Position numbers and translations under genes: made by a program. From an uncultured Chthonomonadaceae bacterium (GTDB lineage Bacteria > Armatimonadota > Chthonomonadetes > Chthonomonadales > Chthonomonadaceae), in assembly GCA_963835065.1 (NCBI GenBank), contig CAWIEK010000048.1, positions 1 through 64,000 on the forward strand: a DNA stretch of 64,000 nucleotides, written 5' to 3'. The number at the start of each line of letters is the position of its first letter. Position 1 is the first letter of the stretch. This document shows, piece after piece, positions 1 to 17,667 of the stretch. The notes under the pieces are model-generated. The model had not been told where the DNA came from. It was given only the letters and a program-made list of their open reading frames with translations, and searched no databases.

Positions 1-1264
1 GCGCATTTACGGCTAATTTTTTTTCTTTTTCCGCGAGTTTCTGCGCGCTTCTTGTCGTCAGAAAGGAGCTTCCCAGCAGAGCGAAAACAACAGAGAGCAA
101 GGTTCCTGCCAGCGCCATGCCTCTCCAAAAGGCTATTCGTTGCCGCCGCACTTCCGCGTTGGGCATGTTCGTCCGTATCCATTCTCTGTCGAAAACGCGA
201 AAATAGATTTGGTTCCGAACGAACAAGCGCCCATTGACGACGCGCACGATCCCGGACAGGCGCACAACCGCCATGTTCGGGTTGGTCGGGTCGTAACGCA
301 TTGCCCGCAAGCGGTTGCGGGCGCGCGCATAAATATCCAGCATGGCGGCAATGTCCGCATTGCTGCGCAGCAGGCGATTGCGAACAAAGGCCAGGTTGTC
401 ATCCGTTTCGCGCGCCTTGCGGCTGAGAAACAGTTCGTCGCACTGCTTATCTACGTCGTGGGGCGTCAGGGAACCGCGACACTCCGAGAGGGCGCGGCAC
501 AAGCGCTGCGTCATATAGGGCTGCCCGCCTGTCCAGGAAAGGACGCGCTGCAGCAGGCGCGTGCCTGTGACAGCATCTTCATCCAATCCTTCAGCCAGGG
601 GCGCGGCTTCTTCCAAAGTGAAGTCCGCCAGTTCGATACGCCGCCCGATATTGAACGGCGTGGTGCGCGGGTCCTGAATCAGATCGCTCGGCGTGGCGAC
701 ACCGAGCAGGCAAAACGTCAGCCGTTTCAGGTCCGGCTCCTGCGTCCGGCGGTTGTAACACTCGCGGATGCCCGCAAAGAATTCGTCGGTGGAAAATCCC
801 AGACTCAGCACCGCGTCAATTTCGTCTATAAAAATAACAATGCTGCCATCCAGTTTTTTGAGCGCGACCTCACGAATAGCGGCCATCCAGCGCTGCATGG
901 GGCCAATCGCTTTGTTTTCGCGCCAGAAGTCTATAAGATCATCTTCCAGTTCGATTTGTTCGGCAAGCCGGCGCAGCAACCCGTAGTACCATTGCTCCAC
1001 AGTCAAATTCTGGCCGATTTCCGTCAGGTCAATGACCGCGACGTGATATTTCTCCAGGCGCAACTGTGTGGCCGTCCGAACCATCAGGCTGGACTTGCCC
1101 ATTTGCCGACTGGTCAGCATGTAGCAAAGCAGGCCTTCCCGTAACGCGCTGATCAAGTGCTTGTCGGCCTGGCGCGCGACATAGGAACGCGCGCCGAGCT
1201 GCAGTGTGCCTCCCGTAACGTAAAAAGATGGCGCGCGTTCGTTGGTGACGGCTTCAGTAGTCAT
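1..1264 (-). CDS. AAA_35-like (STAND-type) ATPase with a downstream TM segment, 3' end runs off the window
   Basis: Not in the ORF track because it is open at the window edge. My translation from the ATG at 1264 gives MTTEAVTNERAPSFYVTGGTL...SYVARQAD...CYMLTSRQMGKSSL (Walker A variant typical of AAA_35). Near the edge it reads a hydrophobic helix MALAGTLLSVVFALLG. Confidence 0.85.
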   Translation of the reverse strand, partial: MTTEAVTNERAPSFYVTGGTLQLGARSYVARQADKHLISALREGLLCYMLTSRQMGKSSLMVRTATQLRLEKYHVAVIDLTEIGQNLTVEQWYYGLLRRLAEQIELEDDLIDFWRENKAIGPMQRWMAAIREVALKKLDGSIVIFIDEIDAVLSLGFSTDEFFAGIRECYNRRTQEPDLKRLTFCLLGVATPSDLIQDPRTTPFNIGRRIELADFTLEEAAPLAEGLDEDAVTGTRLLQRVLSWTGGQPYMTQRLCRALSECRGSLTPHDVDKQCDELFLSRKARETDDNLAFVRNRLLRSNADIAAMLDIYARARNRLRAMRYDPTNPNMAVVRLSGIVRVVNGRLFVRNQIYFRVFDREWIRTNMPNAEVRRQRIAFWRGMALAGTLLSVVFALLGSSFLTTRSAQKLAEKEKKLAVNA

Positions 1265-1313
1265 AGCGCTTTTTCCTGACGGCGTTGACAGTAACGTGAG
1301 ACTAAAGTGAGAC

Positions 1314-1802
1314 TTACATGCGCTTGAGCGTGGTTTTCGCGCCTACATCCTTGCCACTCTTTGAAGTTGCTTTGGCATCATTTATATCTTTGATGACCTG
1401 CGGCGTCTTCATAACGGGAACGTTGGCTGCCTCCATGTGGTCCATGGCTCCATCCCCCGCCGCCCATCCCCCCTTACATTCCCGGCACACGGGCTTGTTG
1501 TTGGTAAGATTCGTGCGGCACTGGCACATCGCCAGGTGTGAGATGCAGAAGTCGCAGGCCGGGCGGATGCAGCAGGAGACTTTTCCGGCGGCAGTCGCTT
1601 TGGCGCGGGTTCTGTTGAGCCTGTTCTGGATAGACTGCGCCGCCGGGAGAGCCGGAATAGTGTTTGCCGCAGACATTTTTGCCGTTGGGGGCTTCTCCTT
1701 ATGGGAGGAGTCTTTGTCCTGCCAATGCGGGGCGGCCCACACGGAAACGCCGAGCGCCAACGCGGGCAGGCACAGATACAACCCTTTCTTCCGATTTATC
1801 AT
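1314..1802 (-). CDS. Secreted Cys-rich small protein (CCxxPxCxxC...CxC...CxxC), probably metal-binding
   Basis: 162-aa ORF with GGAGG RBS, N-terminal signal peptide and 8 clustered Cys (SCCIRPACDFC, CQC, CRECKGGW). Confidence 0.75.
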   Translation of the reverse strand: MINRKKGLYLCLPALALGVSVWAAPHWQDKDSSHKEKPPTAKMSAANTIPALPAAQSIQNRLNRTRAKATAAGKVSCCIRPACDFCISHLAMCQCRTNLTNNKPVCRECKGGWAAGDGAMDHMEAANVPVMKTPQVIKDINDAKATSKSGKDVGAKTTLKRM

Positions 1803-1980
1803 TGCTATCCTCCCTCCGTCCTGCGCGTCCGGCGCGGGCGGAGTATCCCTACAAATAAGTTCGATAAGCGTGAGCCTTACGCCAGGGTTGACAACGCTTC
1901 AGGTGGTGGCGAGTACAGGAACAGGCTCATGTTGAAACAAACAAACGTATGAGCGCAGAAGTTCCCTTTCCTGTGTACTT

Positions 1981-2020
1981 AAAATAAAAAATTGCCGTGA
2001 TGATACAATCACCCGGCAAT
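1981..2020 (-). terminator. Probable intrinsic terminator (minus strand)
   Basis: Minus-strand ATTGCCG...CGGCAAT hairpin followed by TTTTTTATTTT. Confidence 0.55.
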
Positions 2021-2391
2021 CTGTACATGCAGCGCTGCAAGTGGGTAACAACTACGTGCTAACCGGCATTTCTACCAGACATATTATACTCCCAAATCGG
2101 GGATTTATTGAAGACTAATTCAAAAATTAATAAAAATTTAATTTAATTGCCTATTTAACCAGTAGCATGGTTAGTATCCGTAAATCAATACGTTCCCGAA
2201 CGGGTTGCGAAGCCTACCTTTGCCAACGGGATGTGGGGCAAGCAAAGGATAAAGGATGAAGGATGAAGGATGAAGGTAGGTAGAAAAAAGAGTATGTAGA
2301 GTCATCGTCGAAATCTTGGCAATACAGCGCTTCCAGCCCGATGTCTCATTGTGTCAAGTTGTAGGAGAGAGGCGTCATGGCCTCAGCAGCG

Positions 2392-2418
2392 TCAGGGCGA
2401 ACGGGAGGGGTGGGACAT
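2392..2418 (-). CDS. Putative micro-ORF MSHPSRSP*
   Basis: AAGGAGGT SD, with the ATG 9 nt after GGAGG. The same spacing and the same SRSP-TGA end occur in copy 2 despite divergent intervening bases. Confidence 0.4.
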   Translation of the reverse strand: MSHPSRSP

Positions 2419-2527
2419 GGGCCTGTACCTCCTTTCCTGAGTAGGTAGTTGTAGTTGATAGTTGATAGTTGATAGGAACTCGAGCGTTCAACCTTCCTGT
2501 CTGTATAGTAGACGTTTGTTCTAGTCT

Positions 2528-2555
2528 TTAGACGGCTGCGTGGGGCAAAGGGTTC
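2528..2555 (-). promoter_or_regulatory. ECF-sigma-type promoter (GAAC-N18-GTCTAA)
   Basis: Minus strand GAAC cctttgccccacgcagcc GTCTAA. Identical boxes and spacing occur at 43900-43927, resembling the sigmaE-class consensus. Confidence 0.6.
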
Positions 2556-2797
2556 GTTTATTTTGCGTTATTTTGCTCTTTTTGCTGTCTTTTTTCTGTT
2601 TCTTTTTGGTGAATTGGTTTTGTGGGATTGTTGCTGGATGGTTGCTGTTGGCGTGGTGAGGAACGGGGATGAGGCGCTTGCTTGACGTCTGGAAATCTAT
2701 CACTTCCCGGTGGGCGCAGCAAGCAACGCCCTTACGTTCGGGAAGTTAAAAATTTAGAAACCTTTCCTCTCGCTCATAATCAAAGCAGGCGGAAAGG

Positions 2798-3649
2798 CTA
2801 TTTTGTTGTCAGTATGAGGAAATGCTCAGAGTACGAACGTGTCATAAAATTGTTATTGCTATCATAAGCGGTGACGCCCCATTCAAAAACATCGCCGCGC
2901 TGCAAAGGCGGGTCTGCTTTCCATTGGGTTTCTGCGCGTCGAGGACTCGGTTGGTCTTTGGACTGGCGATTGGACAGGCTGCGAATATGAACCTCATAGC
3001 TTGCTGCACCCTGCACAGGTTTCCACTGGAAAATCGGCGCATCTTCCTGAATAACGGTTTTTGCCGGAGGATAGGTGAGCGTCAGGGGGAGCATATCATT
3101 GTCGGAACTGCCCATCTGCCTTGTATGCGTGGCCTCAGTAAGCAATGCCAGTTGGGGCGCGGAAGGCGCATCATAAGCGGTCGCTGTTTTCGCCTCCCTG
3201 TCCGCCTGGCGCGTGGAAGATGTCTGTTCCGCCCATTGCGTTCGCAGGGCAGCGTTTTGCTTTATTTGCCACGCGCTGATCAGCGGCAATGCCACGAGAA
3301 TTAGACCGACAGCGAGTACAAACGCTTTCCGCTGTAGCGCCGGCCTACTCATAACGCGCCGTGTGTTGTTAAGGGCAGGTACGGAGGCAAAAGCGGGGTC
3401 AGCAAGCGCTTGTTTGCACATTTCAGACGCTAAATGGCGCGCTTCCAATACATCAACATACTGTCGGCGGCAATAAGGACAGAAGGCAACATGACTCATC
3501 ATCTTCGTTGAGACCGAGGCCCTTAACTTTTGCGCGGCGAGTTTGCGCAGCATTTTTAAGTCAGGGCAGTTCGGCGTCGGAGACGTGGGTTGACCATTTT
3601 GGGTATGCAGCTCTTTTTCAAACGGCCATAGATTGTTGGTTTCCGGCAT
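2798..3649 (-). CDS. Anti-sigma factor: N-terminal HxxxCxxC zinc-binding motif, one TM helix, extracytoplasmic beta-sandwich (FnIII/DUF928-like) domain
   Basis: HVAFCPYC, TM segment FVLAVGLILVALPLISAW and C-terminal PIFQWKPVQGAASYEVHI...FEWGVTA. It lies directly downstream of the ECF sigma gene. Confidence 0.8.
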   Translation of the reverse strand: MPETNNLWPFEKELHTQNGQPTSPTPNCPDLKMLRKLAAQKLRASVSTKMMSHVAFCPYCRRQYVDVLEARHLASEMCKQALADPAFASVPALNNTRRVMSRPALQRKAFVLAVGLILVALPLISAWQIKQNAALRTQWAEQTSSTRQADREAKTATAYDAPSAPQLALLTEATHTRQMGSSDNDMLPLTLTYPPAKTVIQEDAPIFQWKPVQGAASYEVHIRSLSNRQSKDQPSPRRAETQWKADPPLQRGDVFEWGVTAYDSNNNFMTRSYSEHFLILTTK

Positions 3650-3676
3650 TATATTTGATTCCCTTACTACTCTATA

Positions 3677-3704
3677 ATAGACGTCGGCGGACTGGAAAAC
3701 GTTG
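3677..3704 (-). promoter_or_regulatory. ECF-type promoter upstream of the anti-sigma gene (AAC-N18-GTCTA)
   Basis: Minus strand CAAC gttttccagtccgccgac GTCTAT, with the same spacing as the promoters in the dispersed unit. Confidence 0.45.
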
Positions 3705-3721
3705 GGGAAAAGAGGTTTGTT

Positions 3722-4807
3722 TCAGCGCAGCTCTTTGATGGTGTCAATGACTATTTTCTTAATACGCTGATGGTAGCGTTCGCGGCACAGTTCCACTGCG
3801 GTTTTTTTGATGGTACGCTGACCGAGTTCCACAACAGGCACGGCGTCCGGCTTCTGGCTCAGTGCCACAATCTCCGCATAATCCACGCCTTCCAGAACAA
3901 ATTTCTGAAAAAGAAAAGTATCGGCGGTGTTCCATCTATCTTCCGGTTTCGCCTGTGCCGCGTTGTTGTTTGCGTGTCTGCCAAGCACAACGTCCGCAAG
4001 CACGGGCGCGATGCGCTCCTGATAGCGTTGCCTTGAATAAGTTGCCGTCCCCTTGAAAAACAAAAAACGGGTTTGCCGCAGTTCTTTGCCCCGCGCCACG
4101 CGCGCTGAAAACATCCTAAGATCAGTTTCATCCCATTTCGTTTCTGCCTTTTCCTGCATCTTCGCTTCAATGTCAACCTCATCCAGGATAGGTTGTACTT
4201 TAGTACTCATACGTTGCCGGAGATTGACCTCTGTCACTTTTGCGTCAGGGACAGCTTCATTAAAGCGTTCCGCTACCTTTTTGTAGGTACAGCCTTCATC
4301 CTCATGAAGCATGTATACTTGAAAGTCCAGCGCATCCCACCGTTGCTTTTTATTTTTAATTTGTTCCACTTTTGATTGGACCGCTTCTTTCCTTTGCTGT
4401 AAGGAAATTCTTTCCACGACTGCATCTGAAAAAGAAGCTGTTCCGGGCGAAGTCTGTACTATCCCTTTCTGACTTCCGTCACTCACCAACTCAATGATCA
4501 AAGCGGCGGTGTCTGCATCTATCTGACGTTTTCTGCGTCTACATTCATCCAGGCAGACATTGACGGCAATCGTGTAAAACCAAGTGCAGAATTCAGCCTC
4601 CTCCCGAAATCCGGGTAAACTATTCTTCGCTTTAAGAAGAGTGTCTGCGATAGCATCTTTGGCAGCTTCCTCCGATTTCAGGATTGACTTGCAGAGGTTA
4701 GGGAGGCGATTGCCACAGGTTTTGACGAGTTCTCCAAAGGCTTCCCAGTCACCTTGCCTAGCTTTTGCGATAAGTTCTGCTTTCCCTTCTTTATTTGCTT
4801 TTTCCAC
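3722..4807 (-). CDS. ECF-type RNA polymerase sigma factor with a C-terminal extension of repeated region-4-like units
   Basis: Region 2 reads LIAKARQGDWEAFGEL...AKDAIADT...FCTWFYTIAVNVCLDECRRR. At 361 aa it is about twice a normal ECF. The start is GTG after AAAGGA. Confidence 0.85.
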   Translation of the reverse strand: MEKANKEGKAELIAKARQGDWEAFGELVKTCGNRLPNLCKSILKSEEAAKDAIADTLLKAKNSLPGFREEAEFCTWFYTIAVNVCLDECRRRKRQIDADTAALIIELVSDGSQKGIVQTSPGTASFSDAVVERISLQQRKEAVQSKVEQIKNKKQRWDALDFQVYMLHEDEGCTYKKVAERFNEAVPDAKVTEVNLRQRMSTKVQPILDEVDIEAKMQEKAETKWDETDLRMFSARVARGKELRQTRFLFFKGTATYSRQRYQERIAPVLADVVLGRHANNNAAQAKPEDRWNTADTFLFQKFVLEGVDYAEIVALSQKPDAVPVVELGQRTIKKTAVELCRERYHQRIKKIVIDTIKELR

Positions 4808-5158
4808 TTTGTCGTCCTTTAAATCAGGGCTGCATCGTATCGTGCAAAGTCATGTTTCTGCTGCTACGAGACATGTACGCCCGCTTATATTCATCGCTTT
4901 ACGGTAAATTCCTGCCGGAAACGGCGCGCGAAAAGAAATTACAAACTTTTCGGAGAAATCCCTCACAGTATAAGAACCACGCGCCGTCAAATTATCAGCA
5001 ACGCACGACAAGCCTTTGTGGCTTGCAGTCTTATTAGTTTCTTGCTCTCGTCAACACTTTGACAACACATTGGACAAGTGTCCAGATTGAGAAACCGACA
5101 GGCTTTTTCAAAGCCTGCATCCCACTCGGGATTTTTTCATAAAGGAAAATGAACCGAA

Positions 5159-6922
5159 ATGAAACAGAAACTACAGATCAAGATGTTAATCATGCTGGTC
5201 CTTGCCATCCTTATGAGGGCTATGACGTCTGCCAGAGCGGACACGACCACGCTTGCCAGCCTGGTCTTTAACGGCGGACTAACTCATGGAACCGGGTCTG
5301 TCACTCTACGCCCCGGGGATACGGTTATCGTGAGCGGGACGTTTTACGTGAGTCATCAAACGACAACCATGCATGTGTGGACCTCGTCAGGGCACTCATT
5401 CGATCCGAGGCCGAACGGCCAAGTATCCTACCTCAACACAGGTACGTCCGATGCTGTCTTCGCAATCCTCAACAACTGGCAGCCCGGTGATTTAGGCGGC
5501 TATATCGCCATCGGAATCCGAAAACGTTCAAATCTGATGGTCATCAAACCCGTCTTAGAGGCGGACGGCAGTGTTAGCTACGGATATCGTGTCGGCGACC
5601 AGCCCTGGGATCCCTGGGGGCATAACGTCGCCGTAGAATTATATTATGCCCAAGGCTCGACGATAATTGGCTCTCCGATTGCGAGTCATTCTCTTCTTAC
5701 TGCAGCCAACTCCTACGGCTGGTTCAACGTTCCGGCCTCGCAAATACCTCCAGTTCCTGCGGGTGCGGACGGGGTGATAGCTGTCGTTGACCGCCAAGAT
5801 GTAATTCCTAAGTCGGATGAAGGCGATAACCGCGCTGTCACGCCCTTGCCTAACCTGCGCGTGGTTGCCCCCTCCTACGAACCGTCCGGCGACATTACAT
5901 ACGGCTACCAGATTCAGCGCGCCTATGCCAGCACGAACCAGCGCGTAACCTTGGCACTTTACTATGCCGATGGCCCCAATGTCTCGGATATTCTCCCGGA
6001 TATGCCGCCTGTTCACGAGACGACGCTGGACCTCAATGCTGGTCCGGAACATCTGTTCACAGTGCAACACGGTACGTACCCGCTTCCCACATCAGAAGCA
6101 ACTCATCTGGTTGCGGTGATTGATCGCAACAATGCTATCCGCGAAGGCGCCCTTGGCGAGGCCGACAATGTGGCCGCTATCGAAGCACAGCCCGCACCAG
6201 GCTACTACATGATCGCGCGGGGCCAGGGCGTCGGCATCTACCGGAAAGACGTGGGAAGGCAGCCCGCCTATTATGCCTTGATCTTAGACCTGAATCGCGC
6301 CGCCATTGGGCACTTCGCGACGAGCGGGTATGCCAATATCTCTAGTTATTCGCCTCTGGCTGTCAAGGGGAACAATGCCTCCCATTATGCAAAGGCCGTC
6401 TTCAACGGCACGTTCTTTGATGGAACATACGTTACCGGCTACACGCCGTCACTTGGCCTGAAAGTGGCGGGCCGTCTAATCGGCTGCGGTACGCGCGCCG
6501 CCGACCCGAAATTTGCCGGACGTATCTCGCTGTTTGAGTATCAGGGAAACTCCACCACCATCGTTCCCTACAGTGCCGATTTCCTGAAGGATACGCGGTT
6601 CAGCGATATAGACGGTGTTTACAACACCAGCCTCAAAATCAACCCGACCGATGCCGTGCGGCGGACGTGGATCGCTCTACGCGACCCCGTCAGCGCGACG
6701 GTAGCTGGCGAGCAACGCTATCGCACCGCTGTGTTTTTCCTAACTGACCGCGCGCTCAGGTGGCAGGAAGCTTATGACGAGATTTCCCTGTTCACGCCAA
6801 ATATCGTCGCGCAACTGGATAGTTCGTCCAGCACTGCGCTCAATGTGGATAGCCACAATCTGGTTACGAATACCATAGGCAGATTTCTGCCCTATGCCTT
6901 CGCTATCTATGCCAGACGTTAA
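5159..6922 (+). CDS. Exported protein with two CARDB-like Ig domains and a C-terminal phosphodiester-glycosidase (NAGPA)-like domain
   Basis: Signal peptide, two repeats ending VVD/VID...E.DN, and C-terminal FNGTFF, RTWIA and QLDSSSST (compare NAGPA motifs NGgfF, RtaiG, LDGGGS). Confidence 0.6.
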   Translation: MKQKLQIKMLIMLVLAILMRAMTSARADTTTLASLVFNGGLTHGTGSVTLRPGDTVIVSGTFYVSHQTTTMHVWTSSGHSFDPRPNGQVSYLNTGTSDAVFAILNNWQPGDLGGYIAIGIRKRSNLMVIKPVLEADGSVSYGYRVGDQPWDPWGHNVAVELYYAQGSTIIGSPIASHSLLTAANSYGWFNVPASQIPPVPAGADGVIAVVDRQDVIPKSDEGDNRAVTPLPNLRVVAPSYEPSGDITYGYQIQRAYASTNQRVTLALYYADGPNVSDILPDMPPVHETTLDLNAGPEHLFTVQHGTYPLPTSEATHLVAVIDRNNAIREGALGEADNVAAIEAQPAPGYYMIARGQGVGIYRKDVGRQPAYYALILDLNRAAIGHFATSGYANISSYSPLAVKGNNASHYAKAVFNGTFFDGTYVTGYTPSLGLKVAGRLIGCGTRAADPKFAGRISLFEYQGNSTTIVPYSADFLKDTRFSDIDGVYNTSLKINPTDAVRRTWIALRDPVSATVAGEQRYRTAVFFLTDRALRWQEAYDEISLFTPNIVAQLDSSSSTALNVDSHNLVTNTIGRFLPYAFAIYARR

Positions 6923-6974
6923 GCAACTGGAAGCAGAGCCAATTCTCTGGTTCCACACATCAAAGGAGAAAATA

Positions 6975-7943
6975 ATGAAAACAATCCGTCGCAGCACCCA
7001 ACTGTTTTTGCTGCTGGTGACACTGATGCTCTTTACTGTCGCATCGCAGGCACAAACCCGAAAGGGCTTCATGCTCTCAACACTAGCCCGCTCCACTGAG
7101 GACGTGTGTCGCGACATCAGCTACCTGTCACAAAAGGGAGGCAATCTCTTCCGATTCCCCGTTTACTTCGGTTATGAACCAAGCGTGAGCTACTGGATTG
7201 ACATGGCAGATAACTGTCGCCAGGTCTGTGTAGATAACAACGTGACGCTTGTCGTAGATTTCCATTGGCCCACACCAGGAAGTCCGGATTCACCTATAAA
7301 GGGATCAGGCATACGTGATATAAACGATTTCAAGGCAAGATGGTATCAGTTCGCCCAACACTTCTATCAGACTGGCAGAGAAAGCAATCTATGGTTTGAA
7401 CTGTGCAATGAGCCATACGTATACTATGAAGATAGTAACAAAAACAAAAAATATTGGCGAGATGTCGCACTTGAAACAGCTAGGATGATCCGTGACATCA
7501 CAGTCGCCATCCCCATCGTGTATTCCGTGCCGAAAGACACTACCCAGCATCTCGAAAATTTCGAACCGTTGCCGATTGAGAACCAGGTGATCACCTTTCA
7601 CTTTTGGGATTGGGCATTCCAAGGGTCAGCCAACTTGAAGTATCCAAACAAGGAACCAGGTATGTATCCGCACCCTCAGGATGGATGGACATATGCCGGG
7701 ATAAATTCCTTGCTCAGCAAAGCGGATAGAATTCGGGACATGGGCTGCGAAGTATATATCGGAGAGGTCGGCATAAACTCCGCCAATCCCAGTGCCGCCA
7801 GATTTTTCCGTGATTTCACTGAGGCGTGCAAGCATCATGGATTTGACCTTACGATCCATGCCTATAAGGAGGATCCCATGTGGGACTACGAAGCAAACAA
7901 CCACACCGCTTGGCAAGTCCTTCTGGACTGGTTGAAGGGATAA
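6975..7943 (+). CDS. Exported glycoside hydrolase family 5 (cellulase superfamily)
   Basis: AAGGAG RBS, signal peptide, and motifs FRFP, VDFH, FELCNEP (acid/base Glu), FHFW and YIGEVG (nucleophile Glu). Confidence 0.85.
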   Translation: MKTIRRSTQLFLLLVTLMLFTVASQAQTRKGFMLSTLARSTEDVCRDISYLSQKGGNLFRFPVYFGYEPSVSYWIDMADNCRQVCVDNNVTLVVDFHWPTPGSPDSPIKGSGIRDINDFKARWYQFAQHFYQTGRESNLWFELCNEPYVYYEDSNKNKKYWRDVALETARMIRDITVAIPIVYSVPKDTTQHLENFEPLPIENQVITFHFWDWAFQGSANLKYPNKEPGMYPHPQDGWTYAGINSLLSKADRIRDMGCEVYIGEVGINSANPSAARFFRDFTEACKHHGFDLTIHAYKEDPMWDYEANNHTAWQVLLDWLKG

Positions 7944-8018
7944 TCCAACACAGCTTGCAGCGCACCTGACTAAAGCTGTGTACTGCATAGTCACCCAATA
8001 GATTGTTCGCTTTTTCTC

Positions 8019-8062
8019 GCTCGGTGAGATAGTATTTCCAATGAAATACTATCTCACCGAGC
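8019..8062. repeat. Perfect 20-bp inverted repeat (hairpin) between the GH5 and CHAT genes
   Basis: GCTCGGTGAGATAGTATTTC-caat-GAAATACTATCTCACCGAGC. Confidence 0.9.
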
Positions 8063-8151
8063 ATCAGAGGGAGGCGTGATGTTAGAGCGGAAATATTCGG
8101 TATACTGGATTGCGTCAGCGTGGCAATCTGATGTGTAAAGGAAGCAGGCGA

Positions 8152-11073
8152 ATGCGACTTCAACGACTATTTACTGTTCTTAGGCTGGTTTGCTGCGTAT
8201 CCATTCTCGGTTCGCTTGAACGTACCGCCGGATCACAAGAAAAGCCTGCTGTGCCTTCTCAGGCGCAGATTGAGATTGATCGCTTGCGCCATCACGGGCA
8301 AGAAGCAGCTAATCGAGAACAGTTTCTTCAAGCAGAACAGTTCTACCTTGCCGCGTTAAGAAAAGCTAAAACCATAGGTAATAAGCGCCTCGAATGGCCC
8401 CTGCTTTATCAACTAGGGTATGTCACCTACAAGCAAGACAAATATAGTACGTCAAGTGGCTACTACTCACAGGCATTAACTTCATACGAAAGCCTTCACA
8501 AGATGGGCAAAGAAGCCGCCATCAGATTTGCTTTTTTGCATGAAGGTATGGGTGGCGCTTGTCATGAGTTGGCACGATCTACCAGGGACCAAAAATACTA
8601 TGCGGCTGCCTTGCATCACTTGACGGCAGCTCTAACATTATTTAGAAATTTGAATAACCCTCCCAATAGCGTTGACCGGAAACATATTCTTGATTTGATT
8701 GACCGCCTGGATGACGTTCACTGGAATACGGACAATTATGAGAGAGCGTTGCGCTATTACCTTGCGGTGCTTGAACTGCGTCGAAAATGGGGGACCAATG
8801 CCGATATAGCCCACAGCCTTGAAAGATTGGGTGATGTTTACCTCGTGCTGACGCGCAATGATGAAGCGCTTAAATATTATGACGAGGCTCTTGAAGTATG
8901 GAAGAAAATCCGCAACGCCAGTAGTATCGCCATTTGTTTGAGCGACATAGGGCAGGCCCATCTCAATCTGTTCCAATTCAATGAATCTCTGGACGTTTGC
9001 ACACAGGCGCTTGCTATCTTCCCGGCCTCCGACAAGATCAATATAGCTCTATGCTGCATGAGACGGAGCGGAGCCTACGTAGGAGTTCATAAATATAATG
9101 ATGCCGCAGAGGATTGTCAGCACGCAATAAAACTCTACCAGCAAGCAAACGACCTTAAAGGTGTTGCGAACGGCCTCCTCATCCTGAGTCTCCTTTCGTC
9201 GTCTACCAACGTTAGCCATATCCCTGGCATAACTTTGTCGGGAACGCTAGGGAAAGGTCAAGCGCCTACCGATACGATGTCTATAGCGTTGAGCCTGCTG
9301 GCTCAGGGAAGCGCAGACCTTTCCCGAGGCAAAGCGCCATCCGCGTCCGTCAAGCTACAGCGCGCGCAGTCTTTGTTTGTCAAACTTCACACTCCACAGT
9401 ATCTTACCGCGTGTTCCAACCTCCTGGCCGAAGCCTACGTGCAACAGGGCCTGCTCGACAAAGCGCAGGCAGAGTACCAGACCGCTATCACTCATTATGA
9501 AGATTTGAGCGAACAGGTTGGCGATCCCGGCCAATTGGGATTGCTACAGGCAAGTGGGCCTAATCTATATGCTCATTACGCCCGACTGCTGGTACAGCAA
9601 AAGCAAGCCGTTCGCGCGCTGCTTATTGCCGAACGAGGACGAGCCCAGGGATTGGCTCGCCAGGCCGCGCAAAACCAGGTAACATATAATCTTTCCGTTC
9701 TTTCAAACGCCGAAACCGTAGAACTCAGACGGCGTAATGAAGCTTTGCGAAGCGCGGCCTGGGATTATTTCGTTCGTCATCTTGCCCACGCTCAGGCGCG
9801 TTTCGAGAAGGCGAAACTACAGCGCGACCTGCTGAATACAGTCCTCTACAAACGCCATCCCGCGTACAAACGACTTCGCGGAGCCGAACCACTGACATTT
9901 GCCCGACTGCAAACATTGGCGCGGCAAAATCCAGATACACTGTATCTGGAATGGGCAATCGTGGATGATAAGACAAGCTTGCTGTTTGCCCTCTCGCATC
10001 GGCATGGCCTTCAAGCGTTTTCTCTGCCGTATGGGAGCAAGACGCTGTTCGATTTGACGCACCGGTGGCGTGTTTCCCTGAATGCCACCGGACAGCTTAA
10101 TGACCGGCACACGCCTTTTGAGCAACATGACATTTTGTGGAAGGCTCAAGAAGCGGAACCGCATATTGCGACGGAACTCTACACCCTGCTGTTTTCACGT
10201 CCCGAACACGCCGGCATGTTTACCAATGTGCGCCGTCTCGTCTTTGTGGCGGATGGACCGCTGCTGAACGCGCCGTTTGCGGCTCTGCGCGATGCGCGCG
10301 GCAAACGCCTGGTAGAACGCTACGCGCTCGCGTCTGCCATTTCCCTGGGAACGCTCTTGTGGCCGCCCAATCCGCGCCAGCCGGAAAAAACACTGCTTTC
10401 TCTGGCCGATCCTACCGGTGACACGGCACAGGGGATTTCTGCGTTCACAGCAGGCGACACATCCGGCGTTTCTCCGACTTACGGCCCGTTGCCTTCTGCG
10501 CGACAATATGGGACACAAATTGCCGCTTCTGTTCCCGGCGCGCTCCTGTACTTGGGTCGGAAAGCGCAAAAGGCGGTCATCTTATCGCAGCTTCCCCATT
10601 ACGCTGTTCTCTTGTTCGCCACGCATGGCGCGTTGAACGCCAACAATGGGCTTCGCTCCGCCCTTATTCTCGCTTCTGCCGGGTCAAGCAAGCAGCCTCA
10701 TGACACTTTGGAAGCGCGCGAGATCATCGGACAGCAACTGTCCGCGCGCCTGGCAATCCTTGCCGCCTGCCAGTCGGGACTTGGGCAGGAGAGTGGCGGG
10801 GAAGGCTTGCTCGGCCTGGCGTGGGCATTCCGCGCCGCCGGGTGTTCCTGCGTCACTGCAAGCCAGTGGAGCGTGGACGATGAAGCGACGGGAATTTTAA
10901 TGCAGCGTTTTTGGGACGGCCTCAAAGCGCACAAACGCAAAGACGATGCTTTGCGAGAGGCGATGTTACAAGTTCAGCATAATCCTGACTATGCCCGCGC
11001 TTACTATTGGGCTGCTTTTCAGATAATTGGCGATACCAACCCGATTTCAACTGGCACGATCTCAGCGCGTTAA
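8152..11073 (+). CDS. TPR-CHAT caspase-like protease with a predicted signal peptide
   Basis: TPR repeats, then CHAT motifs VADGPL..APFAAL, FATHG (catalytic His), LAACQSG (catalytic Cys), SQWSVDD and YYWAAF. Confidence 0.92.
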   Translation: MRLQRLFTVLRLVCCVSILGSLERTAGSQEKPAVPSQAQIEIDRLRHHGQEAANREQFLQAEQFYLAALRKAKTIGNKRLEWPLLYQLGYVTYKQDKYSTSSGYYSQALTSYESLHKMGKEAAIRFAFLHEGMGGACHELARSTRDQKYYAAALHHLTAALTLFRNLNNPPNSVDRKHILDLIDRLDDVHWNTDNYERALRYYLAVLELRRKWGTNADIAHSLERLGDVYLVLTRNDEALKYYDEALEVWKKIRNASSIAICLSDIGQAHLNLFQFNESLDVCTQALAIFPASDKINIALCCMRRSGAYVGVHKYNDAAEDCQHAIKLYQQANDLKGVANGLLILSLLSSSTNVSHIPGITLSGTLGKGQAPTDTMSIALSLLAQGSADLSRGKAPSASVKLQRAQSLFVKLHTPQYLTACSNLLAEAYVQQGLLDKAQAEYQTAITHYEDLSEQVGDPGQLGLLQASGPNLYAHYARLLVQQKQAVRALLIAERGRAQGLARQAAQNQVTYNLSVLSNAETVELRRRNEALRSAAWDYFVRHLAHAQARFEKAKLQRDLLNTVLYKRHPAYKRLRGAEPLTFARLQTLARQNPDTLYLEWAIVDDKTSLLFALSHRHGLQAFSLPYGSKTLFDLTHRWRVSLNATGQLNDRHTPFEQHDILWKAQEAEPHIATELYTLLFSRPEHAGMFTNVRRLVFVADGPLLNAPFAALRDARGKRLVERYALASAISLGTLLWPPNPRQPEKTLLSLADPTGDTAQGISAFTAGDTSGVSPTYGPLPSARQYGTQIAASVPGALLYLGRKAQKAVILSQLPHYAVLLFATHGALNANNGLRSALILASAGSSKQPHDTLEAREIIGQQLSARLAILAACQSGLGQESGGEGLLGLAWAFRAAGCSCVTASQWSVDDEATGILMQRFWDGLKAHKRKDDALREAMLQVQHNPDYARAYYWAAFQIIGDTNPISTGTISAR

Positions 11074-11420
11074 AGCGTTTGCTCAAGACGTCACAAATTT
11101 CGTTTCACTTGTTCTCGCAGCGTTGGAGTAAAGCCGCCGCAAGATGCGGGAAAGGGTGAAGAAAAGGAGGTTACGTCAATGAGGCTCGCGGCGCAAAGAG
11201 ATACAAGCAACAGTGGCAAAAACAACAGCAAAACCCTGTGACAGAACGCGATTTTTGTAACAAAGGAAGCGCCTGCTTGTCACAATGCGTAATGCCGACA
11301 ACAACATCGCGGCCTGCTTTTTATTGTCACATCATTTTCCGGCTATTTTACGCCAACTTCCTGCTGTTTGTTGCCGGGCTTTCCACGCTTCGCCCGCTTT
11401 CCGCTGTTGGGGACTATGCA

Positions 11421-14099
11421 ATGTCGCGCTCCTTACGCTTGCTTTCTGTTGTCATGGGGTCGGGTATCGCTTCCATTTTGCTGGCGGGCGTTTGCCCGTC
11501 TGTCGCCGCGCCGCACCCGCCCGAACTGCTTCCAAACACGCTTCCGGCAAAGCGCCGATGCCAACGAAGCCCGCGCTTGATCTCGCCTCGGTTCCCGTCG
11601 CGCTGGTCGTGGAACCGTCCTGTAATTCAGTTGATTGGGCCGCGTTCGCAGGCGCATGTTCTCGTTTCCGCGCGGTTTGCCGACGGCAGCCTGCGCGATG
11701 TCACCGACAAAGCCACGTTCACGCCCAAAAACGCCGCCCTTCTCGCGCTGGAAGCCGATGGTTCGCTGCATCCGCGCAAGGATGGCGACACGCTTCTGGC
11801 CTGCGCGTATGGCGGCAAAACGGCGAGCGTCAAGGTGAGCGTGAAAGACGCGCAAAAAGCCATTCCTGTCAGCTTTACCAACGAAGTTATTCCCCTGTTC
11901 ACGCGCCTGGGCTGCAATCAGGGCGCGTGTCACGGGGCGCAGTACGGCAAGGGCGGCTACAAATTGTCGCTGGCCGGCTTCGACCCCGATCTGGATTACG
12001 CCAACACCGTCAAGCAGGCCAAAGGGCGGCGAGTTTCCGCTGTTGACGCCGGACGCAGCCTGCTGCTTGCCAAGCCCCTGATGAACGTGCCGCACGGCGG
12101 CGGGCGGCGCCTGGAGCGCGACACGCCCGCGTATGCCACCCTGCTGCAATGGCTGCGCGACGGCGCTCCCGGCCCTAATCCCAACGATCCCGCCGTCACT
12201 AAAATTGACGTGTACCCCGCCGAGCGCGTCCTGCAAAAACAAAACGGTTCCCTGCATCTGGTTGTCCGCGCCACGTATGCCAACGGCGCGACCCGCGATG
12301 TAACCGCTACCACGCGCCTTAACACCCTCAACGACGGCATTGCCGCCTGCACCCCTGACGGCCTGATAACCCCCGTCGGCAAAGGCCAAACCGCCATCAT
12401 GGCCCGCTACAGCGGCCAGGCGGCGGTGGCGACGGTGCTTGTGCCGTTCCAATCAGGGAACAGGGAACAGGGAACAGGGAACAGAAAAGGAGAAAAGGAG
12501 AAGAGGAGAAGAGGAGAAGAGGAGAACATAACTCTCAACCCTCAAACCGGGCGTCCACCCGCAGGGAAGGACACAACCCTCAACCCTTCCGCCACTATTG
12601 ACTCCTTTGTTCTGCGCAAGCAGCGGCAGTTGGGGCTTGTGGCGTCGCCGGTTTGCGATGACCGGACGTTTATTCGGCGCGTGTCGCTGGATTTGATCGG
12701 CACGATGCCGACGCCGGATGAAATCAATGCGTTTGTGGCGGACAAGCGTTCCGATAAACGCGCCCTTTGGATCGAAACCCTGCTTTCGCGCCCGGAATAC
12801 GCCGATTATTGGACGCTGAAATGGGGCGACCTGCTGCGCAGTAACCGGCAGACGCTTGGCGCGAAAGGCATGTGGAGTTTCACCAACTGGATACGGACGC
12901 AATTGCAGCAGAACCGCCCCGTAGACCAGTTTGTCAACGACCTGATTATGGCGCAGGGCAGCACGTTCACGAACGGCCCGGCCAACTATTACCGCGTGGT
13001 CAGCGACCCCAAAGATTTGGCGGAAACCACCAGTCAGGTGTTTTTGGGCGTTCGGATGCAGTGCGCCAAATGCCACAACCATCCGTTTGAAAAGTGGACG
13101 CAGGCGGATTATTACCAGTTTGCCGCGTTTTTTGCCCGCGTCGGCATTAAAGGCAGCCAGGAATTCGGGCTGTTCGGCAACGAGCAGATCGTCCGTATCA
13201 ACGACGGCGGCGAAGTTTACCATCCCAAAACCAGCGCGAAGATGCGCCCGACCCCGCTTGGCGTACAACTGGTTTCTCTGCCGGGTAAGACGGACGCGCC
13301 ACCTGCCGACCCGGACGCGAACGGCGACCGCCGCCGCGCGCTTGCCGATTGGCTCACGGCTCCGACTAATCGCCTGTTTGCCCGCAACATCGCCAACCGC
13401 TACTGGGGCTATATGTTCGGCAAGGGGCTGGTCAATCCCATTGACGATATGCGCGTGACCAACCCGCCGACAAACCCGCAATTGCTCGACTTTCTGGCGG
13501 ATGAACTGACTCGCAGCCACTATGATTTGAAGCATCTGCTGACGATTATCTGCAATTCACAGGCGTATCAGCGCAGCAGCGAAGCGACGGGCGACAGTTT
13601 GAAGGACGAACTGTTCTTCACGCACTACATGCCCAAACGTCTGGGAGCCGAAACCCTGCTGGACGCCATTGATTTCGCCTGCGGCACACAGGAAAAGTTC
13701 AACCAACTGCCGCCCGGAACCCGCGCCATCCAACTGCCCGATCCCAACGTCGGCTCCGACTTTCTGGACACGTTCGGGCGTCCCCTGCGCATCATCTCCT
13801 GCGAATGCGAACGGACGGTGGAGCCGAACTTGTCGCAAACCCTGCGCCTGATGAACGGCGAACTGGTCAACCGCAAAATCGGGCAAAGCGAAGGCCGTAT
13901 CTTCAAAATGGTGACGGCCAAAAAGTCCAATGACGCCATTCTCAACGACATTTATATGGCTGCGCTCGGACGCCCGCCCCGCCGAGAAGAGCGTTTGCAG
14001 GTAATGGGCGCACTGGCCTTCGCGCCCGACCGCAAGCCCGTGTTCGAGGACGTGCTGCTCACCCTGCTCAACAGCAAAGAGTTCCTGTTCAACCATTAA
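11421..14099 (+). CDS. DUF1549/DUF1553 domain protein with Ig-like (Big_2) domains
   Basis: SFTNEVIP..GCNQGACHG, FIRRVSLDLIG, QCAKCHNHPFEKW, NRYWGYMFGKGLV and CECER. A short compensated frameshift is likely near 11550-11620. Confidence 0.9.
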   Translation: MSRSLRLLSVVMGSGIASILLAGVCPSVAAPHPPELLPNTLPAKRRCQRSPRLISPRFPSRWSWNRPVIQLIGPRSQAHVLVSARFADGSLRDVTDKATFTPKNAALLALEADGSLHPRKDGDTLLACAYGGKTASVKVSVKDAQKAIPVSFTNEVIPLFTRLGCNQGACHGAQYGKGGYKLSLAGFDPDLDYANTVKQAKGRRVSAVDAGRSLLLAKPLMNVPHGGGRRLERDTPAYATLLQWLRDGAPGPNPNDPAVTKIDVYPAERVLQKQNGSLHLVVRATYANGATRDVTATTRLNTLNDGIAACTPDGLITPVGKGQTAIMARYSGQAAVATVLVPFQSGNREQGTGNRKGEKEKRRRGEEENITLNPQTGRPPAGKDTTLNPSATIDSFVLRKQRQLGLVASPVCDDRTFIRRVSLDLIGTMPTPDEINAFVADKRSDKRALWIETLLSRPEYADYWTLKWGDLLRSNRQTLGAKGMWSFTNWIRTQLQQNRPVDQFVNDLIMAQGSTFTNGPANYYRVVSDPKDLAETTSQVFLGVRMQCAKCHNHPFEKWTQADYYQFAAFFARVGIKGSQEFGLFGNEQIVRINDGGEVYHPKTSAKMRPTPLGVQLVSLPGKTDAPPADPDANGDRRRALADWLTAPTNRLFARNIANRYWGYMFGKGLVNPIDDMRVTNPPTNPQLLDFLADELTRSHYDLKHLLTIICNSQAYQRSSEATGDSLKDELFFTHYMPKRLGAETLLDAIDFACGTQEKFNQLPPGTRAIQLPDPNVGSDFLDTFGRPLRIISCECERTVEPNLSQTLRLMNGELVNRKIGQSEGRIFKMVTAKKSNDAILNDIYMAALGRPPRREERLQVMGALAFAPDRKPVFEDVLLTLLNSKEFLFNH

Positions 14100-14101
14100 A
14101 C

Positions 14102-14172
14102 AGTTGATAGTTCGTAGTTGATAGTTGATAGGGGTGCAGGCGCTATCAACTATGATCTATCAACTATCAACT
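14102..14172. repeat. Heptamer-repeat palindrome (GTTGATA)n...(TATCAAC)n
   Basis: Directly visible inverted tandem heptamers after the DUF1549 stop codon. Confidence 0.9.
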
Positions 14173-14204
14173 CTTGCAAGCCGTAAACCAGGCGCAGGAT
14201 TTGT

Positions 14205-15056
14205 ATGTCCAAACCCTTTGACGCGACACTGAAAACGCTGGTGCAAAACCATCCCGAAGACTGGCTGGCGCAGGCAGGCTTGCCGTTCGAGGGGCAGATT
14301 GATGTGATTGACGCCGACCTTTCCACGGTAACAACGGCGGCAGACAAGATCATCCGCGTTCATGCGCCCCGGCCGTGCCTGCTGCATGTGGAACTGCAGG
14401 CCGATGAAGACGAACATCTGGATACGCGCGTTTTGAAGTACAATGTACTTCAGTTCGTCCAGCACAATCTGTCCGTTCACAGCCTTGTGGTCTTGTTGCG
14501 CTCCGCTGCGGACGATCCAAAATTAACCGGAACCCTGCGCTGTCCCTCGCCACTCGGCGGCGATACGCTGGTATTCCACTATCAGGTTATTCGCGTGTGG
14601 CTGGAGCCACCCGGAACGTTTCTCAATGGCGGATTGGGATTGTTACCGTTGGCAACTGTCAGCAACGTCACCAAAGAAGAATTGTCGGGCGTTATCCGGC
14701 AGATGAGTGACCGGCTACAGCAGGAAGCCGACCCGGAAGAAGCCAAAACAATCTGGACTTCCGCTTACATCCTTGCCGGACTGCGCTATTCTTCAAAGAC
14801 CGTTCAACAACTGTTCCAAGGAGTGATTAGTATGAGAGAATCATCTACCTATCAAGCCATTTTGAAAGAAGGACGCGACGAAGGGCATGTAGAAGGCATC
14901 AAGCATACATTGATGGTCTTAGGGGAGAAACGATTCGGAAAGCCAACAACAAAAACACGACGCGCGTTTCAGGCTATTGTAGACGCAACACGACTGGATT
15001 ATTTAACAGACCGCGTACTCGACGTGAACACTTGGGATGAACTGTTGGCGTCGTGA
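14205..15056 (+). CDS. Rpn family (PD-(D/E)xK nuclease/putative transposase) protein with DUF4351-like C-terminus, copy 1
   Basis: MSKPFDATLK...AADK...HVELQ...MRESSTYQAILKEG...LGEKRFG. Confidence 0.85.
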   Translation: MSKPFDATLKTLVQNHPEDWLAQAGLPFEGQIDVIDADLSTVTTAADKIIRVHAPRPCLLHVELQADEDEHLDTRVLKYNVLQFVQHNLSVHSLVVLLRSAADDPKLTGTLRCPSPLGGDTLVFHYQVIRVWLEPPGTFLNGGLGLLPLATVSNVTKEELSGVIRQMSDRLQQEADPEEAKTIWTSAYILAGLRYSSKTVQQLFQGVISMRESSTYQAILKEGRDEGHVEGIKHTLMVLGEKRFGKPTTKTRRAFQAIVDATRLDYLTDRVLDVNTWDELLAS

Positions 15057-15151
15057 GAGCAAGAAGTTCCTGTTTAACCCGTAACGCCTGAGTATCGCTT
15101 TTACAGCCATAATGGCTCAATACCAATCTGGTGAAGGCGAGGCAAACCTGT

Positions 15152-16027
15152 ATGTCCAAACCATTCGACGCCACGCTGAAAACGCTTGTGGAAAAGTACC
15201 CGTTGGCTTGGCTGGCGCAGGCCGGTATTCCCATCATGGGCAGCGTGGAAGTGATCGAAACCGATTTATCGACGGTCACGGCGGCAGCGGATAAGGTACT
15301 GCTTATTCGGCATCCGAAACCGCTTTTGATCCACATCGAACTCCAATCCGGTTATGATGCAAACCTGTACCGACGCCTGTTGCTGTATAATGTGTTGCTG
15401 TATTACCGCTATGGTATTCCGGTACATACCATTCTTGTGCTGTTGCGCCCGGAAGCGCAAACGTCCAATTTGACAGGGCGCGTCGAATATGCTTCTCCGT
15501 TTGGAACCAGCGCATTGGCGTTTAGCTACCAACTTATTTCTATATGGGAGCAGCCGGCAGACACGTTTTTGAACGGCGGATTGGGTGTGCTGCCGCTTGC
15601 GTCTGTCAGCAGCGTTTCACAAGAGGAGTTGCCGGACATCCTTCGGCAGATCAGTAACAGGCTGGACCGGGAGGCCGAACCTGCCGAAGCGGAAATTCTG
15701 TGGACAGCGACGTATATTCTGGCGGGCTTACGCTACTCACCGGCGTTGGTTACGGAATTGTTCGAGGGAGTTAGAAACATGAAAGAGTCCTCCACTTATC
15801 AGGCTATTCTGGATGAAGGGCGCGTAGAAGGCCGTATGGAAGGCCGCGCGGAAGGCCGCGCGGAAGAAATCAAGCGCATGTTGCTGTTGTTAGGCGAGAA
15901 ACGATTCGGCAAGCCAACCCTGCGTATGCGCAAAAAAATAGAAACAATGACCAGTGTGGACACGCTGGAGCAACTTAGCCTGCGCTTGCTGGACGCGACA
16001 AATTGGAAAGACTTGCTGGCATCGTGA
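15152..16027 (+). CDS. Rpn family protein with DUF4351-like C-terminus, copy 2
   Basis: Tandem paralog of the previous gene, with HIELQ, MKESSTYQAIL and (EGRx)4 repeats. Confidence 0.85.
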   Translation: MSKPFDATLKTLVEKYPLAWLAQAGIPIMGSVEVIETDLSTVTAAADKVLLIRHPKPLLIHIELQSGYDANLYRRLLLYNVLLYYRYGIPVHTILVLLRPEAQTSNLTGRVEYASPFGTSALAFSYQLISIWEQPADTFLNGGLGVLPLASVSSVSQEELPDILRQISNRLDREAEPAEAEILWTATYILAGLRYSPALVTELFEGVRNMKESSTYQAILDEGRVEGRMEGRAEGRAEEIKRMLLLLGEKRFGKPTLRMRKKIETMTSVDTLEQLSLRLLDATNWKDLLAS

Positions 16028-16063
16028 AAACGCAGTCTAAACGCCTAATGTGAGGAGAAGAAA

Positions 16064-17389: not shown

Positions 17390-17406
17390 TAGACTGCGAG
17401 AAAATT

Positions 17407-17667
17407 TTGCACCACAGAGACACAGAGACACAGAGGTTTCACAGAGAAAAATTCAAAGAGAAAAGAAGAGAATGAAGAGAGATATGTTGGAAGCAAGTGA
17501 GCAAATCCGGTTAGGCGCAGGGGAAAACAGCGTTGTTGATGAACAGGTGAATCATGCTGTTACTTCAACGGCAAGATGGTCGCGCATAGTTAGCCCACCT
17601 CTCTCGTTCTCCCGTTTTTCATCATCCCTCTGTGAAACCTCTGTGTCTCTGTGTCTCTGTGGTGCAA
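17407..17667. repeat. MITE-like palindrome with perfect 40-bp arms built from CACAGAGA octamers
   Basis: 17407-17446 is the exact reverse complement of 17628-17667. A related element lies at 60755-60923. Confidence 0.9.

Follow-up and report, generated by a model that had tools for sequence, protein, structure and literature searches.

Can a caspase-like protease of the cell envelope free a sigma factor by cutting a separate, membrane-bound anti-sigma factor, independently of CRISPR? The question is raised by a locus at the start of a 64,000-nucleotide stretch of DNA, here called the window (positions 1 to 64,000, forward strand, of contig CAWIEK010000048.1, assembly GCA_963835065.1), from an uncultured Chthonomonadaceae bacterium of the phylum Armatimonadota. 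The host genome (G000) comprises 8.0 Mb in 71 contigs with 57.0% GC, and contig C48 begins with the window; C numbers denote contigs of this genome, L numbers loci fetched from relatives and P numbers homologous proteins. Open reading frame (ORF) calling and family scans confirmed seven genes in 1-11073. An earlier note, made from the letters alone, had placed genes for a sigma factor of the extracytoplasmic function (ECF) kind (3722-4807, minus strand) and an anti-sigma factor (2798-3649, minus strand) divergently from plus-strand genes for a CARDB-NAGPA-like protein, a GH5 glycoside hydrolase and a TPR-CHAT protease, and our ORF calls agree with this arrangement. We read the sigma, anti-sigma and TPR-CHAT genes, with a confidence just short of even, as a phylum-wide gene set (hereafter the module) that forms a split DdvA/DdvS-like switch, in which the protease, predicted to be exported, would free the sigma factor by an extracytoplasmic cut.

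The protease, the anti-sigma protein and the sigma factor

The TPR-CHAT gene (8152..11073, plus strand) encodes a caspase-like protease of the CHAT family (peptidase clan CD) that is predicted to be exported and matches the Pfam CHAT domain PF12770 (E 2e-57, 195.5 bits) as well as TPR_12. Its frame is open from a TTG at 8110, with the ATG at 8152 as the likelier start. The His/Cys dyad, which the earlier note had called intact, was recovered as His839 (10624-10626) and Cys887 (10768-10770) in THG and AAC motifs; both residues are nearly invariant among the CHATs of alignment A4, and protease activity is predicted. The signal peptide claimed in the same note is supported by a hydropathy heuristic only (2.56): the N-terminus is basic, then hydrophobic. 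An 11-residue hydropathy score of at least 2.0 was reached by 24 of 26 long module CHATs (three fragments were left out of this count), compared with 221/488 long ORFs and 2/47 sigma ORFs of the genome. In a tree built for the most part from module CHATs, the window protein groups (100/100) with three CHATs that adjoin the same anti-sigma family. Compared by sequence with solved structures, the CHAT domain gave no match. When the protease (aligned-sequence residues 75-943) and the anti-sigma ectodomain (160-283) were modelled as a complex, the prediction scored 0.00 and is not used as evidence.

The anti-sigma-like membrane protein (283 amino acids, 2798..3649, minus strand) was characterized from alignments A1 and A5, hydropathy and a structure model. 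It carries an HxxxCxxC zinc motif at residues 53-60, a single transmembrane helix at about 103-130, a helical/linker region and an FN3 domain at 186-283. Across 38 homologues, residues H53, C57 and C60 show little or no variation. In the model (mean predicted local distance difference test score 80.6) the N-domain is helical; a long helix and a loose linker lead on to a beta domain spanning 186-283, which matches FN3 domains with a Z of about 11 and a root-mean-square deviation of about 2 Å over 87-92 residues. The protein was placed without support in the anti-sigma tree. Searching a genome-contig collection with the anti-sigma protein alone returned one unrelated 39-residue match, and a plasmid search returned none. 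In cyanobacteria, genes of the DUF928 family (PF06051) adjoin CHAT and CHASE2 genes. Over its FN3 region, the anti-sigma homologue of L030 scores below threshold against DUF928 (E 2e-4), and the window protein has no such match; it differs from the FN3-like DUF928 proteins by its zinc anti-sigma domain and transmembrane helix.

The sigma factor (361 amino acids, 3722..4807, minus strand; Pfam Sigma70_r2 at E 3e-11, TIGR02937 above cut-off) is itself unusual. Behind sigma2 (27-94) it has three sigma4-like repeats, at 153-215, 220-273 and 289 to about 355, which the earlier description had lacked. A profile built from the sigma4 regions of the L023, L029 and L042 relatives alone matches them at E 3e-9, 4e-9 and 0.005, and the repeat pairs were outscored by only 1, 16 and 1 of 2000 shuffles. 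The repeat unit, W-D-x-x-D...R-x-R-x-x-x-K-I-x-P-V-L, is the single sigma4 of those three sigmas, present here in three copies; overall, the protein resembles the short sigma type of L023 and L029. Among 1,258 candidates, P0002 (65% identity) was the only other protein with the same extension. Beyond residue 212 the AlphaFold model has low confidence and is too poor for a fold search, and Atlas matches for that part gave no more than sigma4-like leads at 0.87-0.88. The tandem copies may recognize a -35 element that is extended or repeated, or the extra ones may serve as decoys for a trimmed anti-sigma factor.

Between the two genes lies a candidate ECF-type promoter (3674..3707, minus strand), found by pattern match as AAC, 17 nt and CGTCTA; AAC and CGT cores of ECF-type promoters are described in the accessible part of PMC6061681. 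In 19 of 38 anti-sigma genes the core GTCT[AT] lies close to the gene start, compared with 25 of 114 coding windows, and GGCAA-N17-CGTCT is common to eight loci (seven contexts close to the anti-sigma start). Such motifs before anti-sigma genes suggest a predicted feedback of the sigma factor on its own regulator. A pattern search upstream of the CARDB, GH5 and CHAT genes gave no convincing promoter for the sigma factor, and scans for sigma70 promoters and terminators stayed at chance level. A further match, GAAC-N17-CGTCTA at 2555 (minus strand), was rejected as a target promoter, as it lies within a dispersed repeat and the genome holds 60 such matches. The eight loci with the longer motif are L047, L057, L058, L069, L070, L072, L076 and L079; among them are four loci of family f7 whose anti-sigma gene has neither sigma nor protease gene nearby.

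Recurrence of the gene set and its relation to known systems

Gene-neighbourhood conservation was assessed in two sets of relatives. For the first, an anti-sigma search of 60 relatives gave 17 regions, 16 of them with an FN3 domain; a CHAT or C14 protease was encoded within 4.2 kb in 11 of these 16 (two others had short flanks and three had no such protease). For the second, a profile was run against 400 genomes of the phylum; it gave many weak zinc-motif matches, and the best 40 matches outside the profile were fetched, skipping N-terminal-only matches except one; 39 had the FN3 domain. Here a CHAT or C14 gene lay within 2.9 kb in 23/39, another ten had less than 3.5 kb of flank on one side and six had no such protease, and a sigma gene lay within 400 bp in 29/39. 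By comparison, a CHAT or C14 gene lies within 8 kb of 3.1% of random gene positions in the host genome and of 3/51 sigma ORFs. The genomes are kin, so the linkage counts overstate independence; the positives span families f1, f3, f6, f8, f9, f13, f23 and f32. What recurs is sigma, anti-sigma and protease only; L023-L079 yielded no homologue of the GH5, CARDB or AAA_35 protein encoded here.

CHAT is replaced by a C14 caspase-domain protein in five loci (L032, L038, L043, L045 and L067), and L075 has both. This suggests that the retained feature is a caspase-clan protease. The divergent layout of the window is found in L029, with nothing between sigma and CHAT, and in L023, where two unrelated exported genes are inserted and the CHAT domain is cut by the contig end. 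Two further triads in the host genome (C49:479232-484736 and C63:265093-269295) are frameshifted as assembled; several other CHAT genes of this genome are fragmented too, which leaves room for errors of assembly.

The genes flanking the module vary and often encode exported or envelope proteins (HAF-repeat, S8 peptidase, CsgG, PagL). Among 118 flanking proteins of 35 module loci we found no cas or CBASS protein; eight matched PADLOC models, all partially and to generic domains. The CRISPR-independence proposed for the set is supported by these neighbours. They also bear on an antiviral role, in which the protease would act as an envelope sensor of a phage protein and the sigma factor would induce distant defence genes, as in DdvA/DdvS or Craspase. 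The bench-studied CHAT/sigma pairs are linked to defence in the accessible parts of PMC11506125, PMC10028731 and bioRxiv 2023.06.23.546230, and the block has a low GC content; given the exported or envelope character of most module neighbours and the generic PADLOC matches, we nevertheless regard an antiviral alarm as improbable.

As observations of their own, five loci of family f23 (L048, L056, L064, L066 and L069) have a gene for a PagL-like lipid A deacylase next to the CHAT-sigma-anti-sigma operon, possibly as a conserved envelope target, and exported HAF-repeat-like proteins (scoring as DUF3466) stand beside modules in L023, L025, L028 and L107.

The closest known relative in architecture is DdvA/DdvS of Myxococcus xanthus. 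As described in the accessible part of PMC11506125, it also pairs an ECF sigma factor with an anti-sigma factor that has an N-terminal zinc motif and a single transmembrane helix, and it has an extracytoplasmic (here predicted) TPR-CHAT with a His/Cys dyad. In DdvA, however, the TPR-CHAT is fused to the anti-sigma factor, whereas in the window it is a separate ORF on the opposite strand with its own signal-like N-terminus. Outside the membrane the window anti-sigma has just a small FN3 domain, its zinc motif reads HxxxCxxC in place of CHCC, and the sigma factor has three sigma4-like repeats, unlike DdvS. DdvA/DdvS is tied to CBASS/CRISPR; neither was found among the seven window proteins (the contig ends at position 1) or the 118 flanking proteins. 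The protease is not fused, so the window locus falls outside DdvA/DdvS. According to the same partially available source, the homologue search for DdvA kept fused proteins only, so split forms lay outside its scope, and its authors describe DdvA as the only characterized anti-sigma factor with a TPR-CHAT. DdvA without its TPR-CHAT is reported there to be cleaved by RseP.

The earlier note had taken Craspase as its precedent. This comparison stands insofar as the stand-alone TPR-CHAT of the type III-E system (Csx29/Csx30/CASP-sigma) cuts a separate sigma-inhibiting protein (PMC10028731, available part), but DdvA/DdvS is the closer parallel. Craspase is cytoplasmic, is activated by Cas7-11 with target RNA and acts on soluble Csx30, whereas the window anti-sigma is a predicted membrane protein; no Cas7-11, Csx30, Csx31 or CRISPR array was found among the genes of the locus.

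ECF54 sigma genes are catalogued beside TPR-CHAT genes without CRISPR, but these belong to actinobacteria and go with a subtilase and a carboxypeptidase-regulatory-like protein, and the accessible text of PMC7826278 assigns them no anti-sigma factor. In the window the +1 gene encodes a zinc anti-sigma (ZAS) domain, transmembrane helix and FN3 domain, and 1-22500 holds no subtilase. The host genome also has an ECF54-like cassette (C11:107389-113218) of an ECF sigma, a soluble zinc-motif protein, a TPR-CHAT and an S8-like exported peptidase; its TPR-CHAT lacks a hydrophobic N-terminus and is in two frames as assembled. We found no description of a split sigma/anti-sigma/CHAT form in the openly readable part of the literature, and later ECF classification groups could mention it.

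Exported TPR-CHATs also occur in other arrangements. Four stand beside proteins composed of a signal peptide, a beta-domain, an R-G motif, FN3 and TPR (C63:156929-163917, C44:7832-12201, L117 and L118). A CHASE2-type gene accompanies such an R-G/FN3 partner in L117 (by Pfam) and probably in C63, that is, the same ectodomain unit with another output. Others adjoin cyclase- or BTAD-NB-ARC-TPR STAND genes (C41:75142-81038, C44:263050-269073, C26:23170-29020, L105, L107 and L111), an association Pfam-checked for L105, L107 and L111 only and distinct from AAA_35.

A candidate cleavage site, a proposed mechanism and its rivals

If the exported protease acts on the anti-sigma protein, a site would be expected in its outer part, and a candidate, R-Q-M-G-S-S (residues 177-182; 3104..3121, minus strand), was found by motif comparison in the linker before FN3. 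In the anti-sigmas this position reads hydrophobic-[R/M]-[G/S], mostly followed by small residues. The pattern [R/M][G/S] occurs 5-22 residues ahead of the FN3 start in 28 of 38 homologues, compared with 21 of 152 upstream control windows and with a mean of 12.2 and a maximum of 22 in 5,000 within-window shuffles, counts that concern a pattern chosen post hoc, after the alignment had been inspected, and relatives that are not independent. Among 23 held-out FN3 matches, which include two unrelated proteins and one fragment, the strict pattern was present in 14, and most misses had hydrophobic-Arg at the same position. P0008 has S-Q-M-G-G-S. The motif is also present in CHAT partners in which a signal peptide replaces the zinc domain (L-L-R-G in C63, A-T-R-G in C44). 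Separase cleaves after Arg and craspases after Met or Leu (PMC11506125, available part, which also cites a cut after Met for the Craspase of one species); Arg or Met at the motif thus fits the P1 preference of CHAT-type proteases for Arg, Met or Leu.

These observations suggest the following sequence of events. By analogy with ZAS anti-sigmas and DdvA, the cytoplasmic zinc domain would sequester the sigma factor. The TPR part of the protease would read an envelope signal, most likely a protein or peptide; the analysis gave no pointers to glycans. CHAT would then cleave after the Met of Q-M-G (after Arg in most relatives) and FN3 would be shed, a step to which linkage and motif point. A site-2 protease (RseP) may complete the cleavage, again as in ZAS anti-sigmas and DdvA; an RseP-like gene, recognized by motif, lies at C7:2112-3452. 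The sigma factor would finally transcribe the anti-sigma gene as feedback, and possibly the divergent exported cargo too. The earlier proposal that an exported CHAT acts on the anti-sigma outer domain without CRISPR is, at the level of sequence, partly supported by linkage, by the exchange of CHAT and C14, by the motif and by the lack of cas genes.

Several observations weigh against a cut by this protease. Cleavage by CHAT as the site-1 step is hypothetical even for DdvA, where self-cleavage is a proposal only in the accessible text of PMC11506125. The motif pattern was, as said, a post hoc choice; P0007, 97% identical to the window protein, reads R-Q-I-G-S-S, with Ile at the proposed P1, and the held-out L024 match is out of register. 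A C-terminal TPR-like hairpin is present in 10 of 11 relatives in alignment A1 and missing from the window anti-sigma, with no remnant downstream. P0008 (63-64% identity) likewise stops directly after its FN3 domain, so the shortness is no artefact of local assembly; P0002 and P0008 were each recovered from one Logan contig of 7,044 bases, which suggests that they may be neighbouring genes. Six of the 39 loci of the second set are well flanked and lack a protease near the anti-sigma gene. In the window, the CHAT gene lies 4.5 kb from the anti-sigma gene, behind two genes and a strong hairpin, and where its three tree neighbours have a visible sigma (L026 and L031), this is of another, long type. 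Of the 18 closest CHAT-domain relatives in the 400 genomes, only five adjoin the window's anti-sigma family; three adjoin cyclase- or BTAD-STAND-TPR genes, two CHASE2 or signal-peptide/FN3 partners, and eight have no recognized partner, three of these being cut by a contig end.

Such mixed partners imply that exported TPR-CHATs serve several transducers, and with CHAT kin going with a long sigma and the window sigma of the short type, the locus may be a mosaic. CHAT would then not be the partner of the pair but cargo or the property of another transducer, and the pair, its TPR hairpin lost, would answer something else. The differing affinities of sigma and CHAT, the 13 of 18 close CHATs found away from this anti-sigma family, the separation and the hairpin all favour this, as does the insertion loop of the window CHAT, which lacks an R-G peptide present in several close relatives. 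Chance proximity of a CHAT or C14 gene within 8 kb is expected for just 3% of genes, the divergent layout is shared with L023 and L029, and Q-M-G is retained in both the window and P0008. We judge a mosaic unlikely, though it deserves more weight than the other rivals, and the pairing of this CHAT with sigma and anti-sigma, predicted from sequence, as probable but not certain.

The motif could also be a docking site or securin-like pseudo-substrate, by which the anti-sigma protein restrains or senses the protease while a change of conformation, or a different site-1 protease, frees the sigma factor. Similar hydrophobic-R-G peptides occur in the insertion loop of many module CHATs themselves (L025, L026, L029, L030, L033, L044 and L115), showing that such peptides can sit in cis, and in 23 pairs inspected by eye the anti-sigma motif did not co-vary with the CHAT loop or active-site residues. 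Against this, the dyad is retained in nearly all module CHATs, and CHAT is swapped for another catalytic caspase domain; the small residue after R/M in a linker of low structure fits a cut site. We consider docking rather unlikely.

Extending the preferred reading of a split, cleavage-driven switch beyond the window, there may exist widespread, undescribed envelope modules in which a portable tag of hydrophobic-R/M-G and FN3 (with or without TPR) is cut interchangeably by exported CHAT or C14 proteases, with an ECF sigma as the output here and CHASE2 cyclase signalling elsewhere; the window would be a derived form with three tandem sigma4 domains. We put this forward as a speculative possibility, clearly less assured than the switch itself. 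If true, it would supply a soluble two-protein system for the site-1 role proposed for the CHAT of DdvA, a proposal that is hard to probe in that system, with its fused membrane dimer and no known signal. With its separate protease, small ectodomain and predicted cut site, the split form makes the site-1 question testable in vitro, and caspase-like signalling would reach beyond CRISPR/CBASS into the cell envelope.

Neighbouring genes and base composition

The earlier note had remarked that much of the block is richer in AT than its flanks, which was confirmed: 1936-11073 has 51.1% GC and ranks among the lowest 0.6% when set against 3,719 same-size windows of the genome. GC at third codon positions (GC3) is 0.48-0.63 in the genes of this block, compared with a median of 0.69 for long ORFs.

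The "exported glycanases" of the note hold for one of the two genes. The GH5 gene (6975..7943, plus strand; GC3 0.56) has a signal-like N-terminus, a PF00150 match (E 3e-18, 66.9 bits) and both catalytic Glu motifs, NEP at 145 and IGE at 262; a single distant match (30%) was found among 200 other genomes of the phylum. The exported CARDB-like/NAGPA-like protein (587 amino acids, 5159..6922, plus strand) does not fit the description. It has no Pfam match itself, and among 7,994 scored candidates only four homologues (40-44% identity) were found, two of which (P0004 and P0005) carry PF09992 (NAGPA). The NAGPA-like label comes from these relatives; the DGGGS motif, an active-site motif of NAGPA, is altered to DSSSS in the alignment. 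A homologue with CARDB in L080, the only one with context, lies on a 6.6-kb contig beside a peptidase and a sigma54 activator; no sigma or CHAT gene was found on that contig.

Two genes lie beyond the anti-sigma gene. The AAA_35 STAND ATPase (2..1264, minus strand; PF14516 at E 1.5e-29) does have the transmembrane segment reported before (377-404) and is co-oriented, but it is cut by the contig end and stands 1.5 kb away behind a dispersed repeat and a Cys-rich gene; with a core-like GC3 (0.69) and this position beyond the repeat, it is outside the AT-rich block. It has many paralogues in the host genome. In eight that were checked the nearest CHAT is at least 35.9 kb away or absent from the contig, and most have a similar hydrophobic segment.

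The Cys-rich gene (1314..1802, minus strand; GC3 0.71) encodes an exported-type protein of 162 amino acids that the note had not listed. It has no Pfam match but matches in 22 of 200 other genomes, some inside frames of 500-680 amino acids, and the family is possibly a metal-binding envelope protein. Eight fetched homologue regions (L093-L100) contained no CHAT; with homologues also absent from module loci, a role as peptide signal was rejected. In four of the eight regions the homologue adjoins an ECF sigma gene, three with a zinc anti-sigma; by eye, others lie near Crp-like or MerR-like genes.

The 57 related loci L023-L079 yielded no homologue of the AAA_35, GH5, CARDB or Cys-rich protein, which leaves glycan sensing and a STAND role unsupported. 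Within the low-GC block, GH5 and CARDB-NAGPA are cargo specific to this locus, variable and not kept with the module, and the AAA_35 and Cys-rich genes are bystanders. The version of the circuit in which GH5/NAGPA products are the signal and AAA_35 takes part, favoured by the adjacency of these genes, an unrelated GH5-domain gene upstream of sigma in L038, a TIR-AAA_35 gene that, in L111, lies at a distance of 5.4 kb from a CHAT belonging to the 18 close ones, and other STAND types beside exported CHATs, is very improbable in view of these absences, the core-like AAA_35 gene beyond the repeat, the altered NAGPA motif and a Pfam scan that detected no carbohydrate-binding domain in CHAT or anti-sigma.

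Two non-coding features lie between the genes. A perfect 20-bp hairpin between GH5 and CHAT (8019..8062), recognized by self-match and fold and with no U-run after it, may, from its sequence, act in transcript uncoupling or processing. The dispersed repeat copy (2235..2750) separates the module from the downstream genes and is not part of it; its stretch 2250-2550 gave well over 100 blastn matches across the host genome. The repeat family is 300-450 bp long and holds an ECF-promoter-like GAAC-N17-CGTCTA and an 8-codon micro-ORF after a strong ribosome-binding site. Further along the window, two tandem Rpn-like/DUF4351 genes (14205-16027) interrupt a DUF1549/DUF1553 - DUF1501 - WD40 cluster (11238-19340).

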